A stretch of 42,624 nucleotides of DNA from a virus. The notes under the pieces were generated by a model. It had not been told where the DNA came from. It saw only the letters and a program-made list of their open reading frames with translations, and made no database searches. Below are positions 2,398-41,175 of the stretch, piece by piece. The stretch lies in the UHGV virus genome UHGV-0204464, one strand, 5' to 3'. The translations under genes and the position numbers were made by a program. Each line of letters starts with the position of its first letter. Positions within the stretch are counted from its first letter, which is position 1.

Positions 2398-3849
2398 ATG
2401 GCTACGTGGCAACAGGGTATTAATTCTGGTGGTTTTCTGGCTGGCATCGGTACGCAAAATGAGAATGCGCCAAAGGCAAGCGACATTAACGCAACGCTTG
2501 GTCTGATTCGCGAAAACAATGAACTGGCTCGTTCAGGTGCAAATAACGTTGGTCTGACCGCGTTACGTGGTCTGGCTGGAGTTGCTGATATTTATAAGCA
2601 GCAGCAACAGCAGGAACGTAAAGCGGCATTCCAGAAAGGTTATGCGGATGCTTATGCGTCCGGCGACAGGGAGCAGATGCGTAATCTTATTACAGCATTC
2701 CCCGAAGAGTTTGAGGAAGTCCGTAAAGGCATGGGGTATGTCGATGACGCCCAGCGGAATGATTTTGGCAATCTGGCGCTCAAGGCTCAGGTAGCTTCGT
2801 CGCTTGGTCCGGGTGCATTTGGCAGGTTCATGATGGATAACGAAAAGGAGATGCGTCGTTTAGGTATCCCTCCAGAAACTATTGCGGAAATGCAGGTTAA
2901 TGACCCGCAGGGCTTCCAGCACTTCACAGGTAATCTGGCACTATTTTCTCTCGGTCATGAGAAGTATTTCGATATCAAAGATCAAATGGAAGGTCGGGAT
3001 ATTGAGCGTGGCAAGTTGGCAGAGACGATTCGCAGCAATAAAGCTGGGGAAGGTTTAAAGGCGCAAAGCATTGCTGTTAGCCGTGAAAACTCCCTGCGCA
3101 CTGCTGGAGGTGCTGTTCCTGCATCTGTTAAAGAATATCAATATTTCAACAGCCTGTCTCCAGAGCAACAAAAGACATATCTTCGTGTTCGAGGTCGTCC
3201 TGATGCTGGCGGGGAGAATGTTGTGCAACTGGCAGATGGCAGAACGGTAACGGTTGGTAGGAAGCTTCACGGCGCTGGTGCTAATGCGTTCTACGAAGGA
3301 ATAGACAACGAGGGCAATATGATTCGCGTCCCCGCAAGTTCTATTGCTGCTCCGGCTACATCGGCAGCTAATGCACAGAATTACGAAATGAAGAAAGATC
3401 TTGATGCAATTTCTGGCGCATCAATTGACGATCTTGGCTTCATGACAGGTATTACAGGTTCTTCAGGTTCTTTTGCTCTTGGTGCAGATATTCGTAGCAG
3501 GGCATCTGGTGTTGAGGAGAGGAGGCTATACAACGCTGCACAGCGAATCATGGGCAAAATGCAAAATCAGGGGATTGCAGCAGCCCGAGATATGGGGGCA
3601 TCTGGCATCAACACCGAAGCAGAGGCCAATAGGTATTTTCAGGGTATGCCAAAGCCTGATTTCTCAAGTCCTGAAGCGCTGCAACAATCAATGCGCGACA
3701 TTCAGCAATATACCGACAATTACAACCAGCAATATAACGTTAATGTTGGTAATGGCGGGAAGAAATCATCAAGGCAACAGTCAGCTACTCAGCAATCAGC
3801 AGGAGGTAGCTACACGTCAAAATCAGGCATTCAATTTACGGTGGAATGA
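2398..3849 (+). CDS. Ejection protein, P22 gp20-like
   Basis: 483-aa ORF in the gp20 position; RBS AAGGGG before the ATG. Confidence 0.55.
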
Positions 3850-32577: not shown

Positions 32578-32986
32578 TCATTACAAAGCCCATCAATGGG
32601 TGGGCTTGATAATGAAACCGGAATTTATTCTGGGCAACCAGTTACGGCAGTACCGCGAAACAACCCAAGCCAGTAAGTGGGGAAATAACACTGGCAGCCA
32701 CTGAAAGATGAACCTCCTGCCTTATGGCAAAAAAGATTCTTTGTGGTGGCGGACTGATGGAAAGACATCCGCTGAATCGATAACGAACAAGTGGAAGATG
32801 TTGCGATGGTTTCCGTAAACAAAGACCAGAAGGAAGGCGTTGAATATATCACTGGTGCTGATGGTGTGAAAAGGCCAATGGCTTATTACAAAGCGGCTGA
32901 AGAGAGGGCAAGAATGGAAAATCCCCCTAAATGCGGATCATTTTTCGACATACTGGACCTTCAATGGAAGTTGTGAACAACTAACA

Positions 32987-33010
32987 GGTCGCCCAGGCGG
33001 CCTTTTTTAT
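32987..33010 (+). terminator. Candidate rho-independent terminator
   Basis: GGTCGCC-CAGG-CGGCC hairpin (one G-U pair) followed by TTTTTTATT. Confidence 0.45.
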
Positions 33011-33115
33011 TGCTATCACAAAAGCCATTCCTTACTGAGTGGCTTTGATAATGGCTTATACCCTACACGGGATAACTTAACTGATATCCCTTTTAACGGA
33101 TAAACGGAGCCAACA

Positions 33116-33358
33116 ATGGCAGAGATTATTCCCATGACTGAAGAACAGAAATTCCAGTTAGAGATTTACAAACTGGTCATGAACCAGAACGCAGCCGCAG
33201 AAGAAGCATTTCAATTCATTGGCACTGACGAACTGAAGCTTGAGCTATTCAAAATTCACTTCCAGTCAGGCGGCGCTAATTCGGATATCACAACCCGCAC
33301 TATCGAAGCGGTGCGTAAATCGAAGGAAGCGTTAGACCTGTTCACCACCGGAGCATGA
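33116..33358 (+). CDS. Hypothetical protein
   Basis: 80-aa ORF upstream of terminase module. Confidence 0.45.
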   Translation: MAEIIPMTEEQKFQLEIYKLVMNQNAAAEEAFQFIGTDELKLELFKIHFQSGGANSDITTRTIEAVRKSKEALDLFTTGA

Positions 33359-33359
33359 T

Positions 33360-33539
33360 GTGAGCCGCGTAATCAATTTGGGTAAGGAGAAGAAATTCCC
33401 AATTACTCAAGAGCTATACGAGAGGCTGGAAAGCGTCATCCATGATTACGATGGTGAAATCAGTTTATGCGAGGCGATTGGCACACTCGAATTGCTGAAG
33501 CAGTCACTGATTGAAGGCGCGAAAGAGTCCTCAACCTGA
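33360..33539 (+). CDS. Hypothetical small protein (GTG start)
   Basis: 59-codon GTG-initiated ORF immediately after upstream stop; not in the supplied track. Confidence 0.25.
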   Translation: MSRVINLGKEKKFPITQELYERLESVIHDYDGEISLCEAIGTLELLKQSLIEGAKESST

Positions 33540-33602
33540 AATGACAATTAAGTGAGATGAATATGGCAGCACTCAACATGCTGCCTTTTATCGTTGATTA
33601 GT

Positions 33603-33842
33603 TTAACCGCGAGCTTCACGACCGTTTTCGTCTTCAGGCACACGGAAACGCCAGTACTTATCTGGCTTAACCCAAACAACACTTTCACCGCTATCAACCC
33701 TGAATTTATTAATCACTTTTGTTGATAGCGCTTGGTTGCCATCCGCATTTTCTTTGAGGTGCTGCTCGTTATGTTGTTTAACGAGATAATCCACAACATC
33801 CTGCTGATAAAGGCAACCCTCTGTTGATAAAACGGACATCAT
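33603..33842 (-). CDS. Hypothetical protein (antisense moron, downstream partner)
   Basis: 79-aa ORF on minus strand; no obvious SD; basic C-terminus. Confidence 0.4.
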   Translation of the reverse strand: MMSVLSTEGCLYQQDVVDYLVKQHNEQHLKENADGNQALSTKVINKFRVDSGESVVWVKPDKYWRFRVPEDENGREARG

Positions 33843-33886
33843 CCATGATGAAATATCATCAAGAGTTAAGGTTGGTGTGTTTGGGA

Positions 33887-34069
33887 CTATGGCTTTGGGG
33901 TAACGCGCTCAAGAGATTCCGGTTTGAAATATCCTTGCTCAAGCTTCTTGCCAGCAAACCATTGACAAAGAAAAGAGTTACCGTGGGTAGATGAAAATGA
34001 CCTGATAGTCATGTCAGGTCCGCCTGATTTCAGTTTAACAATGTCACCTGTTTTAAAGTCATCGTTCAT
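33887..34069 (-). CDS. YodC/DUF2158-like small protein
   Basis: 60 aa from ATG at 34069 with strong AAGGAG RBS; motif GDIVKLKSGGPDMTI; the track ORF start at 34102 would overlap the terminase gene. Confidence 0.5.
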   Translation of the reverse strand: MNDDFKTGDIVKLKSGGPDMTIRSFSSTHGNSFLCQWFAGKKLEQGYFKPESLERVTPKP

Positions 34070-34095
34070 AACAATCTCCTTATGGGAAGTAAAAA

Positions 34096-34623
34096 ATGGC
34101 ACTCACCGACAAACAAGAAATGTTCTGTCGCGAGTACCTCATCGATTTAAATGCCACGCAAGCGGCTATTCGGGCGGGGTACAGCGCAAAGACAGCTAAC
34201 CGTACCGCATCCGAAAACCTGTCAAAACCTGATATCAAGTTAAGAATCTCCGAACTGAAAGCGCAACGCAATGATCTTGTTGGTATTAATGCAGAATATG
34301 TACTTAATCGCCTTATTGAAATCGACCAGATGGATGTGCTCGACATTCTCCTGCAAAACGGCGAGTTAAAGCCAATTAAAGACTGGCCTAAGGTATGGCG
34401 CACAACGCTATCAGGAATGGATGTCGTGGAGATGGTATCCGCAGATAGCGCCGCACTTCTGAAGAAAATCAAATGGCCTGATAAGGTTAAAAACCTCGAA
34501 CTTCTTGGTAAGCATGTTTCTGTTCAGGCGTTTAAAGAACAAGCTTCTCACGAATTAACAGGCAAAGACGGCGGCGCAATCCAGATTGAAACATCACCGA
34601 TGAGCACTCTATTCGGAAAATGA
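34096..34623 (+). CDS. Terminase small subunit
   Basis: 175 aa; N-terminal KQEMFCREYLIDLNATQAAIRAGYS typical of a small terminase family; precedes large terminase with ATGA overlap. Confidence 0.8.
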   Translation: MALTDKQEMFCREYLIDLNATQAAIRAGYSAKTANRTASENLSKPDIKLRISELKAQRNDLVGINAEYVLNRLIEIDQMDVLDILLQNGELKPIKDWPKVWRTTLSGMDVVEMVSADSAALLKKIKWPDKVKNLELLGKHVSVQAFKEQASHELTGKDGGAIQIETSPMSTLFGK

Positions 34624-36035
34624 CCTCGATTAATCCTATCTTTGAACCGTTCATTGAGGCGCATCGCTACAAAGTCGCCAAAGGCGGTCGAGGTAGCGGT
34701 AAGTCATGGGCAATTGCGAGGCTGCTTGTTGAAGCGGCGCGTCGGCAGCCAGTGCGTATTCTTTGCGCTCGTGAACTGCAAAACAGTATCAGCGATTCGG
34801 TAATCCGGTTGCTTGAAGACACCATAGAGCGGGAAGGGTATTCGGCTGAGTTTGAAATTCAGCGTTCAATGATTCGTCATCTCGGAACGAATGCTGAATT
34901 CATGTTCTACGGCATAAAAAACAACCCGACGAAGATTAAATCGCTCGAAGGCATTGATATCTGCTGGGTGGAAGAAGCGGAAGCGGTAACGAAGGAGTCA
35001 TGGGATATCCTGATACCAACCATCCGTAAGCCGTTTTCCGAAATATGGGTGAGCTTTAACCCGAAGAACATCCTCGACGATACCTATCAGCGATTCGTCG
35101 TAAATCCTCCTGATGATATTTGTCTGCTGACGGTGAACTACACCGACAACCCGCACTTTCCTGAAGTTCTCCGTCTGGAGATGGAAGAGTGTAAACGCAG
35201 AAATCCGACACTGTATCGTCACATCTGGCTTGGTGAGCCAGTAAGCGCAAGTGATATGGCAATCATCAAACGTGAATGGCTTGAAGCCGCAACCGATGCG
35301 CACAAGAAACTCGGATGGAAAGCGAAAGGCGCGGTTGTCTCTGCGCATGACCCGTCAGATACAGGGCCAGATGCTAAAGGTTACGCATCGCGTCACGGTT
35401 CGGTGGTTAAGCGCATTGCCGAAGGCCTGCTGATGGACATCAACGAGGGTGCTGACTGGGCTACTTCGCTGGCGATTGAAGACGGCGCTGACCACTACCT
35501 GTGGGATGGCGATGGTGTCGGTGCCGGGCTACGCAGACAGACAACGGAAGCGTTCTCCGGCAAGAAAATCACCGCCACGATGTTCAAGGGCAGCGAATCG
35601 CCATTCGATGAAGATGCTCCGTATCAGGCCGGAGCATGGGCTGATGAAGTCGTACAGGGCGACAACGTTCGCACTATTGGCGATGTATTCCGCAATAAGC
35701 GAGCGCAATTCTATTACGCGCTGGCTGACAGGCTGTATCTGACATATCGGGCGGTTGTCCACGGTGAGTATGCAGACCCCGACGACATGCTGAGTTTCGA
35801 CAAAGAAGTGATAGGCGAGAAGATGCTGGAGAAGCTGTTTGCAGAACTGACGCAGATTCAGCGCAAATTCAATAATAACGGGAAGCTGGAGCTTATGACT
35901 AAGGTCGAAATGAAGCAGAAGCTCGGTATTCCATCTCCTAACCTGGCTGATGCACTGATGATGTGTATGCATTGCCCGGAGTCGGCTGCGCAACCCGACT
36001 ATTCCAGTTACTCAATTCCTTGTGGTGTAGGTTGA
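34620..36035 (+). CDS. Terminase large subunit
   Basis: 471 aa; Walker A KGGRGSGKS; ATPase plus nuclease architecture; synteny. Confidence 0.9.
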   Translation: MTSINPIFEPFIEAHRYKVAKGGRGSGKSWAIARLLVEAARRQPVRILCARELQNSISDSVIRLLEDTIEREGYSAEFEIQRSMIRHLGTNAEFMFYGIKNNPTKIKSLEGIDICWVEEAEAVTKESWDILIPTIRKPFSEIWVSFNPKNILDDTYQRFVVNPPDDICLLTVNYTDNPHFPEVLRLEMEECKRRNPTLYRHIWLGEPVSASDMAIIKREWLEAATDAHKKLGWKAKGAVVSAHDPSDTGPDAKGYASRHGSVVKRIAEGLLMDINEGADWATSLAIEDGADHYLWDGDGVGAGLRRQTTEAFSGKKITATMFKGSESPFDEDAPYQAGAWADEVVQGDNVRTIGDVFRNKRAQFYYALADRLYLTYRAVVHGEYADPDDMLSFDKEVIGEKMLEKLFAELTQIQRKFNNNGKLELMTKVEMKQKLGIPSPNLADALMMCMHCPESAAQPDYSSYSIPCGVG

Positions 36036-40733: not shown

Positions 40734-41175
40734 TCTCGTTCTAAAGGCTTTACGAAAAGCCGGGCTGTATTCCAATGCCACGTTGACAGATGCTGACCCT
40801 CAGGCAATTGAAGATGCCATTAATGACCTCGAAGACATGATGGCAGCATGGCAGGCTAAAGGTATCGAGCTTGGATATCAGTTTGCTGATACAGAAAACG
40901 GCATCATGCCGTTACCTGACGATGATTCAGGTATCCCTGCATGGGCAAATGATGGCGTCGCTTTGAAACTCGCTGTGCAAGTGTGCATGGATAACGTCAT
41001 TCAGCCGTCAGACGCTCTCCTTACCGCTGCTGACAGTGCATATCAAACAATCTGTATCGCTTTAACCAAAATACCACCACTTGAGCGACGAAATGACATG
41101 CCTCGCGGGGCGGGGTTAAAAAGCGCGTTTACGTGGAATCGGTTTTACATCGAGAAAGATGATCCGAGTACGTGA
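40714..41175 (+). CDS. Head-to-tail adaptor, P22 gp4-like
   Basis: 153-aa ORF in the gp4 position. Confidence 0.55.
   Translation: MAKTKGDLVLKALRKAGLYSNATLTDADPQAIEDAINDLEDMMAAWQAKGIELGYQFADTENGIMPLPDDDSGIPAWANDGVALKLAVQVCMDNVIQPSDALLTAADSAYQTICIALTKIPPLERRNDMPRGAGLKSAFTWNRFYIEKDDPST

Follow-up and report, generated by a model that had tools for sequence, protein, structure and literature searches.

How might a pair of small genes that run against a phage late operon be expressed, and from where? In this paper, we address that question for a single locus in UHGV-0204464, a P22-like (Lederbergvirus-type) phage genome whose 42,624 nt we refer to, at full length, as the window. The late operon runs on the plus strand in the order lysis genes, DUF2560/orf80, orf59c, terS (the gene for the small terminase subunit), terL and portal, and the gap between the orf59c stop at 33539 and the terS ATG at 34096 holds two genes on the minus strand, a YodC-family gene followed by a DUF6953-family gene (Table 1). 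We argue that these two genes are probably a moron operon, seated in a conserved socket at the edge of terS and transcribed from a promoter of the type that serves the gene pid in phages P22 and BTP1, a promoter that would be written within terS codons 50-59.

Table 1. Features of the locus, in window coordinates (SD, Shine-Dalgarno sequence; RBS, ribosome-binding site)
Feature	Position	Strand	Remarks
terS, small terminase subunit (Terminase_2)	34096..34623	+	Pfam PF03592, E 1.1e-39; phrog_51
Predicted -35, TTGCGT	34266..34271	-	complement of Gln57 third base, Arg58 (CGC) and first two bases of Asn59; aligns to TTGCTT of the P22 pid promoter (Ppid)
Predicted -10, GATTCT	34243..34248	-	complement of Arg50 (AGA) and Ile51 (ATC); aligns to P22 AATCCT, 40892-40887
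Predicted start site, G	34236	-	aligns to the mapped pid start, P22 nt 40,880; placed by homology
Predicted 5' leader of cassette mRNA	34070..34236	-	167 nt; antisense to terS SD, start codon and codons 1-47
Leader hairpin	34098..34138	-	complement of terS nt 3-43; followed by AUUUUUUA in the window
Divergent spacer, right edge of variable cassette	34070..34095	.	26 nt, back-to-back RBSs
terS SD, GGGAAG	34084-34089	+	inside divergent spacer, opposite the cargo SD
SD of YodC gene, AAGGAG	34076..34081	-	read directly; 6 nt ahead of ATG 34069
YodC/DUF2158-family gene, first of cassette	33887..34069	-	60 aa; ATG 34069, stop 33887
DUF6953-family gene, second of cassette	33603..33842	-	79 aa; exact start uncertain
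GC-rich 3' hairpin	33565..33585	.	18 nt past DUF6953 stop; minus-strand fold of 8 pairs, then AUAUUCAUCU
Fossil SD and first 10 nt of P22-type gene 3	33550..33572	+	ATGGCAGCAC at 33563-33572; left junction of the module made of cassette and Terminase_2 terS

The two genes of the cassette

A preliminary description of this DNA had listed both minus-strand open reading frames (ORFs), and both are present and supported by Pfam. The product of the first gene matches DUF2158/YodC (E 2.4e-18, 66 bits against a gathering cut-off of 22.3, with residues 6-53 on positions 1-50 of the 50-position profile) and phrog_3261; that of the second matches PF22266 (E 6.4e-18, 65.1 bits against a cut-off of 27, with residues 1-66 on positions 9-74 of 74) and phrog_10782 (E 2.7e-44). 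The AAGGAG site and the 60-aa YodC gene behind it can be read directly, as the description had said, and 26 nt lie between the start codons of that gene and terS, where it had given 27 bp. The longest ORF of the YodC gene opens further out, at a GTG at 34102 (71 aa), the end coordinate given in that description, and the ATG preceded by the SD is the likely start. The DUF6953 gene has a weak RBS, and its start is uncertain because the Prokaryotic Genome Annotation Pipeline (PGAP), whose labels in E. coli prophages are "YodC family protein" and "DUF6953 family protein," gives it 83 aa in relatives.

Both genes are real and under purifying selection. The median pairwise ratio of nonsynonymous to synonymous substitution (dN/dS) is 0.084 for YodC and 0.076 for DUF6953, and of the 65 IMG/VR loci that encode a homologue of DUF6953, 64 also have one of YodC (35-100% identity), ~48 nt upstream and in the same orientation. 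The preliminary description had made its proposal depend on conservation of these ORFs in relatives, and they are conserved, as a pair. DUF6953 homologues number 574 across Enterobacterales, the best 120 of the 574 being 76-99% identical and drawn from many genera, unlike the YodC partner, which diverges to 35% identity. Few genomes have the cassette (16 of 5,426 complete ones from E. coli), and in the E. coli strains P13-6, ETEC1716 and A15 it is identical to that of the window; tblastn against 50,697 deposited phages gave no match for DUF6953 and nine distant records only for the YodC protein. Base composition (GC 0.41-0.43 in the cassette and 0.44-0.47 in the flanks) does not distinguish it from its surroundings.

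What might the two proteins do? The structure model of YodC (mean predicted local distance difference test, pLDDT, 89) is a five-stranded SH3/KOW/Tudor-like barrel, for which a fold search returned generic SH3/KOW/Tudor barrel neighbours only, and the AlphaFold2 model of DUF6953 is poor (pLDDT 52) and unfit for such a search. Sequence searches of the PDB with both proteins gave nothing meaningful, NCBIfam gave nothing useful for the locus, and the PADLOC-DB 2.0 defence models gave no match for YodC and only a 12.6-bit, chance-level match for DUF6953. A literature search on DUF6953 found no paper, and one on YodC/DUF2158 found a single on-topic match, a Salmonella RpoS proteome paper. Neither protein bears a toxin or defence signature. 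Our guess is that the pair, a small SH3-like barrel with a highly conserved 79-aa partner, may modulate the host or superinfection by binding and not by catalysis, perhaps as an adaptor on a conserved host target.

Two observations on these families may be useful to others. Many 79-aa DUF6953 proteins (P0008, P0011, P0034 and others) carry the name "ATP-dependent RNA helicase HrpA" in NCBI/nr, which is probably a propagated misannotation. In an unrelated phage, Vibrio phage 1.123.O._10N.286.48.F3 (H51), an annotated DUF2158 gene at 3102-3233 adjoins the terminase small subunit gene, and this hints that the adjacency of YodC and terS extends beyond Enterobacterales.

A variable slot and a probable promoter within terS

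The arrangement had been called unusual in the preliminary description; for this family of small terminases, it is the rule. We assembled 161 loci with a Terminase_2-type terS (80 from IMG/VR and 80 from species-representative Enterobacterales genomes, plus annotated E. coli examples) and called antisense cargo strictly, as a gene of at least 45 aa with an ATG or GTG start and an SD. Most loci have a minus-strand gene right beside the terS ATG, and its identity differs from one to the next: the strict calls comprise 98 antisense genes in 30 mutually unrelated clusters, and they start 20-34 nt from the terS ATG (median 25). PGAP independently calls two of these cargo genes, of 108 aa in strain A11 and 146 aa in strain YZ22PE67, both antisense and both before the same terS 5' end. 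In P22, HK620 and Kapi1, orf59c leads straight into terS with no gene between. Close relatives, in other words, carry either nothing or something else at the site, which bears out the suggestion already made that the cassette is a moron.

The occupants of the slot are nearly all ORFans that fall into distinct PHROGs of unknown function. A Pfam search of the cargo proteins gave no significant match save one DUF4145/HEPN-like protein, and PADLOC gave none for ten other cargo proteins. The repertoire (seen in L122, L128, L007/L013/L127 and L026) includes several small membrane proteins; L122 has a lipoprotein-like protein (MKRWLLIIVMLVISGC...), L128 has a 212-aa DUF4145/HEPN-like protein, and a 182-aa protein (phrog_30882) recurs at 8 loci.

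Between loci with different cargo, homology ends exactly at the terS ATG. Every cassette brings its own spacer of the form CAT...CTCC...GG(A)...ATG, and to the right of the ATG, about 93 nt are nearly identical across loci, even where the remaining TerS is only 76-79% identical. Since homology breaks at that ATG and the cargo starts 20-34 nt away, a promoter common to all of the cassettes is possible only inside terS. Synonymous variation there is 2-3 times lower in codons 1-31 (entropy of 0.41-0.51 bits) than in codons 61-113 (1.08-1.21 bits, over 103 unique sequences).

A promoter of this kind has been mapped, at a place where terS is no longer a gene. A sensitive DNA search with terS found P22 at about 40745-40990 (L086 1500-1746) and BTP1 (L085 1500-1746), both at 74% identity. 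What lies there, between rha/orf25 and orf80, is a fossil of the first ~246 nt of terS, its ATG changed to GTG and its frame broken by deletions of 1 nt and 3 nt; the stretch is unannotated in P22 and overlaps "pid" in BTP1 (a few auto-annotated P22-like records call it "terminase small subunit"). The minus-strand gene pid abuts the fossil, 38 nt from its start, and the mapped pid promoter and 5' untranslated region are contained in it. Differential RNA sequencing (dRNA-seq) placed the pid start site at P22 nt 40,880 and saw it in a BTP1 lysogen as well (Wolput et al. 2022, PMC8835761). The -10 element, AATCCT, lies 181-186 nt upstream of the pid ATG, the changes C-182A and C-183A raise its activity 4-6 fold, and the promoter has basal activity without phage factors (PMC8835761). 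Our alignment of the window to P22 recovers the published -10 coordinates, and the two promoters correspond element by element: TTGCGT, 17 nt and GATTCT in the window stand for TTGCTT, 17 nt and AATCCT in P22, with the start at the same aligned base. The promoter of the YodC-DUF6953 cassette would thus lie inside the terS coding sequence, a placement supported by homology. This much of the earlier deduction stands; the bracket of 34100-34250 that went with it holds the -10 and the start site, and the -35 (34271-34266) falls just outside.

Has selection paid attention to these letters? The pattern TTGCG[TC]-17-[GA]AT[TC]CT is kept in cargo-bearing lineages, whereas cargo-less lineages have CGN at Arg50, which gives NATNCG; the last T of the -10 is present only when Arg50 is AGA or AGG (AGR). 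These codons are used at Arg50 in 89 of the 103 unique terS sequences (86%), as against 0-20 of 103 (0-19%) at the other six Arg codons, and 97 of 103 have CGC at Arg58, without which the -35 TTG would lack its G. Among dereplicated loci, 67 have AGR and cargo, 13 AGR without cargo, 10 cargo without AGR and 38 neither (Fisher p = 1.5e-12, uncorrected for shared ancestry or recombination, which counts against our use of it); some of the loci scored as AGR without cargo are miscalls (for example, L003). A strict promoter state (TTG + ATnCT) agrees with the strict cargo state in 115 of 131 sequences and changed at least 12 times on a neighbour-joining tree. The codon pattern at Arg50 and Arg58 is suggestive of selection on the embedded promoter, not proof of it.

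Since they have to spell Arg50-Ile51 and Gln57-Arg58-Asn59 as well, the hexamers are unable to come near consensus, and since the up-mutations known from P22 would, if terS were intact, put Met or Ser in place of an Arg, the promoter stays "eroded." That weakness is also one of several points that weigh against our proposal. The hexamers match consensus at only 4/6 and 3/6 positions, a strict sigma-70 consensus scan of 33000-35000 found no site, and a position-weight scan ranks TTGCGT/GATTCT ninth locally (99.8th percentile). Five loci (L105, L109, L112, L115 and L133) have cargo without the hexamers, and at least eight YodC-DUF6953 cassettes retain only 52-98 nt of terS, with the promoter region absent, so these must use another promoter. 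A pac site, constraint on translation initiation or recombinational homogenisation could account instead for the scarcity of synonymous differences at the terS 5' end. In P22, the wild-type pid promoter is too weak for the Pid phenotype in lysogens, and a 232-bp fragment with both hexamers was inactive where a 338-bp fragment was active (PMC8835761), so that further upstream sequence is needed, from a part not common to the window.

The inactive 232-bp fragment, which contains the promoter core, invites a different account, in which another promoter drives the cassette and the resemblance to Ppid is inherited coding sequence. That other promoter could be TTGACA (34225-34220)-15-TACGGT (34204-34199), which is the top local site of the position-weight scan (9.3 bits, 99.993th percentile), or something deeper in terS/terL, and the short-fossil cassettes lend this account further weight in that they use others (three of them, L194, L220 and L228, have a common junction and a conserved promoter-like site, TGGATA-17-GATAGT). 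The 15-nt spacer of TTGACA/TACGGT is poor, however, and its TTGACA is also present in P22, with no start site seen there; the 244 bp adjoining pid in P22 showed no activity (PMC8835761). Two facts lead us to reject this pair of hexamers as the main promoter: its TTGACA falls downstream of the homologous start, and the cargo-bearing L046 clade lacks it. We regard some other promoter, wherever it might sit, as quite improbable.

Still less credible to us is the proposal that there is no dedicated socket at all. The locus would then be a mosaic joint between lysis and packaging genes, the terS 5' end would be held constant as a pac site, as the TerS DNA-binding domain and for its translation signals, and chance antisense genes would make do with assorted promoters. 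The pac site does lie in or at the start of terS in P22 and SPP1, as it does in the LF82 prophage Gally; there is a mosaic joint inside terS in the E. coli A15 prophage, and the five cargo loci that lack the hexamers also fit. This proposal leaves unexplained, however, why 30 unrelated families are all antisense and all 20-34 nt from the ATG, why P22 retains a dead 246-nt piece of terS with the mapped pid promoter in it, and why Arg50 is an outlier in its use of AGR and loses it in cargo-less lineages.

The predicted leader and its possible bearing on terS

The 5' part of terS most likely doubles as promoter and leader for the antisense cassette, and the transcript that we propose can be described in some detail, by analogy with pid. 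An accessory operon, YodC-family gene first and DUF6953-family gene second, would be plugged into an expression socket at the 5' edge of a Terminase_2-type terS. Transcription of the minus strand would start at about G34236 from the weak sigma-70-type promoter in codons 50-59, a homologue of the mapped P22/BTP1 promoter whose hexamers owe their key bases to the choice among synonymous codons at two positions, a rare AGR (the final T of the -10) at Arg50 and CGC (the G of TTG) at Arg58. The mRNA would comprise a hairpin-bearing leader of ~167 nt, antisense to the terS RBS and first 47 codons, followed by the two protein-coding regions, and would end at the hairpin at 33585-33565. Prophage or carrier-state genomes would express the cassette at a low, constitutive level, and in lytic growth, the opposing antiterminated late transcription would presumably silence it.

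The leader of pid, at 174 nt, is exceptionally long; its nt 110-162 are needed for a second, shorter pid RNA, and a 3' hairpin is needed for mRNA stability (PMC8835761). The window's predicted leader, at 167 nt, folds with z = -3.0, and it has the same hairpin, which in P22 spans nt 94-134 counted from the start site and covers part of the segment required for the shorter RNA. As minus-strand RNA, the leader hairpin has a folding energy of -22.1 kcal/mol (z -5.0, with 0 of 200 shuffles as stable); the plus-strand version, in which three G-U pairs turn into A-C mismatches, reaches only -13.7 kcal/mol. Over 50 unique sequences, canonical pairs make up 91.5% on the minus strand and 80.8% on the plus strand; the synonymous sites that vary most are bulge, loop or wobble-tolerant positions of the hairpin, and the P22 pseudogene has turned a CGC into CAT by two changes that both preserve minus-strand pairing. 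The hairpin is retained in every terS fossil that we found, including the ones that break off at +52 to +98 next to a terS from another family (L194, L220, L228, L223, L230, L200, L224 and L197). These features suggest that it may have a role in leader stability or processing. The hairpin at 33565-33585 gives a terminator-like match with a clean T-run on the plus strand, and AUAUUCAUCU is its tail on the cargo strand; it is the probable 3' end of the cassette mRNA. Rfam covariance models found nothing in 33603-34300, and the only match in 32800-34800, at 32928-33019, is subthreshold (20 bits against a gathering cut-off of 50, E 0.83).

A leader that covers the terS SD and start codon raises a further question: is the antisense RNA itself the main product? 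In the window, the leader hairpin is followed by 6 U in 8 nt (AUUUUUUA), the shape of an intrinsic terminator, and a cis-antisense RNA of ~140 nt that ends there would pair with the terS RBS and the first 47 codons, lowering TerS outside the lytic cycle and limiting packaging or lateral transduction, with the cargo expressed by read-through. It suits this idea that no element but the hairpin survives in all of the fossils, that P22 makes a second, shorter pid RNA dependent on the leader (PMC8835761) and that Pid protein is scarce in lysogens (PMC8835761, PMC3573128). Against it, the U-tract sits in the variable spacer and is no richer where there is cargo (a mean of 4.2 U with cargo vs 4.8 U without), and on those numbers, we have also rejected the tract as a conserved attenuator. 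Moreover, the leader is kept in P22 and at other fossil loci that have no functional terS opposite, a weak promoter cannot titrate antiterminated late mRNA, and Northern blots in P22 reported no short RNA (PMC8835761). We consider it unlikely that an antisense RNA is the main product.

A related thought also seems rather unlikely to us, and we offer it tentatively, as something that we would not yet bet on. The first ~180 nt of this terS family, conserved in prophages across Enterobacterales, might be read in both directions, forward as the N-terminus of TerS and backward as a promoter and structured leader, which would make a portable socket for ORFans and also, in lysogenic or carrier-state cells, an antisense brake on TerS, packaging and lateral transduction. 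The wiring would set cargo expression and packaging against each other, and the long 5' untranslated region of P22 pid would be a fossil of that arrangement.

Some observations on this stretch stand by themselves. A 130-aa ORF with a TTG start (34080-34472, minus strand) is found inside terS on the opposite strand, where it shares sequence with the predicted leader; it matches no family, and we treat it as spurious. At L194 (2194-2250), the cassette lies ~43 nt upstream of an unrelated terS of 332 aa. In a decayed prophage of E. coli ET670 (L001 4135-4975), which has an IS3 element in its tailspike gene, the cassette, together with the first 42 nt of terS, is joined to a truncated gene for a "packaged DNA stabilization protein," and the deletion endpoint corresponds to window position 34137, at the end of the hairpin.

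Known systems and the history of the locus

The locus is a moron in the broad sense, and its closest known system is the pid locus of P22 and BTP1. In both, a minus-strand cassette of small size sits in the late region between lysis and head genes, with a long leader (a predicted one in the window), a 3' hairpin and an AAGGAG SD. They differ in that the P22 promoter and leader belong to a dead terS fossil of 246 nt that precedes orf80, well away from the functional gene 3, whereas those of the window would occupy an intact, working terS, and in that P22 has one gene where the window has two, with unrelated cargo. Searched against all cargo proteins, YodC and DUF6953 included, Pid gave no significant match (best E ~8), and it belongs to PHROG 16546, not 3261 or 10782; we have rejected it as a relative of any cargo. 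The window cassette, then, encodes no homologue of Pid, which derepresses dgoRKAT. Pid acts in the carrier state and not in stable lysogens (PMC8835761; Cenens et al. 2013, PMC3573128). Neither of these two pid papers mentions a terminase.

How does the locus compare with morons and with antisense transcription units elsewhere? The classical moron of Juhala and Hendrix brings its own promoter and terminator, and lambda bor, at the same map position, is the textbook example. Like these, the cassette is a set of extra genes that varies among relatives, occupies the strand opposite the late operon where lysis genes give way to packaging genes and is presumably expressed whether or not the lytic programme runs. 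Unlike them, it does not appear to bring a promoter of its own: the variable segment stops where terS begins, with 26 nt between the start codons of terS and the cargo, and the homologous promoter lies in codons 50-59, that is, in the coding sequence of a neighbouring essential gene, where it would be common to at least 30 unrelated cassettes. Phage cis-antisense transcription units, in which overlapping transcription of opposite strands ties an accessory function inversely to a lytic-cycle transcript, are familiar from P22 sar and lambda OOP, at loci and with partners other than those considered here. Tab of Pseudomonas phage JBD26 has its own promoter, is expressed from the prophage and has a demonstrated defence function (Patel et al. 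2024, PMC10884400). It, too, is a small (83 aa) minus-strand moron protein encoded in the packaging module beside the small terminase gene, but it lies between terS and terL and not upstream of terS, its partner (anti-Tab) is encoded by the plus strand, the sequences are unrelated, and defence is demonstrated for Tab where PADLOC gave no significant match for the window proteins. The ith/tha noncontiguous operon of S. aureus 80alpha (PMC11087260) uses an overlap of opposite strands to couple an accessory function inversely to a lytic transcript, at another locus and with other partners, and an antisense effect on terS is hypothetical here. We also considered the prophage Gally of E. coli LF82, for which RNA sequencing and moron data exist, as sharing the locus, and we rejected it: its terS is a different one, and the cassette is absent.

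In itself, the cassette is nothing out of the ordinary. The apparent novelties are an intact terS that hosts a pid-type promoter and leader, the hypervariable cargo socket and the reading of the pid leader as a terS fossil, none of which we found in the literature that we searched. If our proposal is true, the eroded promoter and long leader of P22 pid are leftovers of a small-terminase gene, and the pid-type promoter is weak since its intact form must spell Arg-Ile and Gln-Arg-Asn. There would then be a hotspot that can be addressed by sequence (20-34 nt before the terS ATG, antisense), at which at least 30 uncharacterised prophage gene families are likely expressed, and with it, a cheap harvest of candidate genes for lysogenic conversion, defence or host manipulation. 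The locus would also show clearly how the choice of synonymous codons can maintain a promoter within an essential gene. Were the leader also to restrain TerS, the finding would be relevant to the means by which prophages hold back untimely packaging and lateral transduction.

The left edge of the cassette tells something of how it may have arrived. P22 homology spans the orf59c stop, the SD of gene 3 and the first 10 nt of gene 3, and then ends; a module of cassette plus Terminase_2 terS has therefore taken the place of a P22-type terS from its first few codons onward. This joint is where the hairpin at 33565-33585 lies, and the fossil start of gene 3 would open a 12-codon ORF that enters it. 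A second joint is seen in the E. coli A15 prophage (L002 3797-7101), which has the same cassette and the same terS 5' end with a different large terminase (540 aa) and a DUF1073 portal, so that the mosaic joint there falls inside terS.

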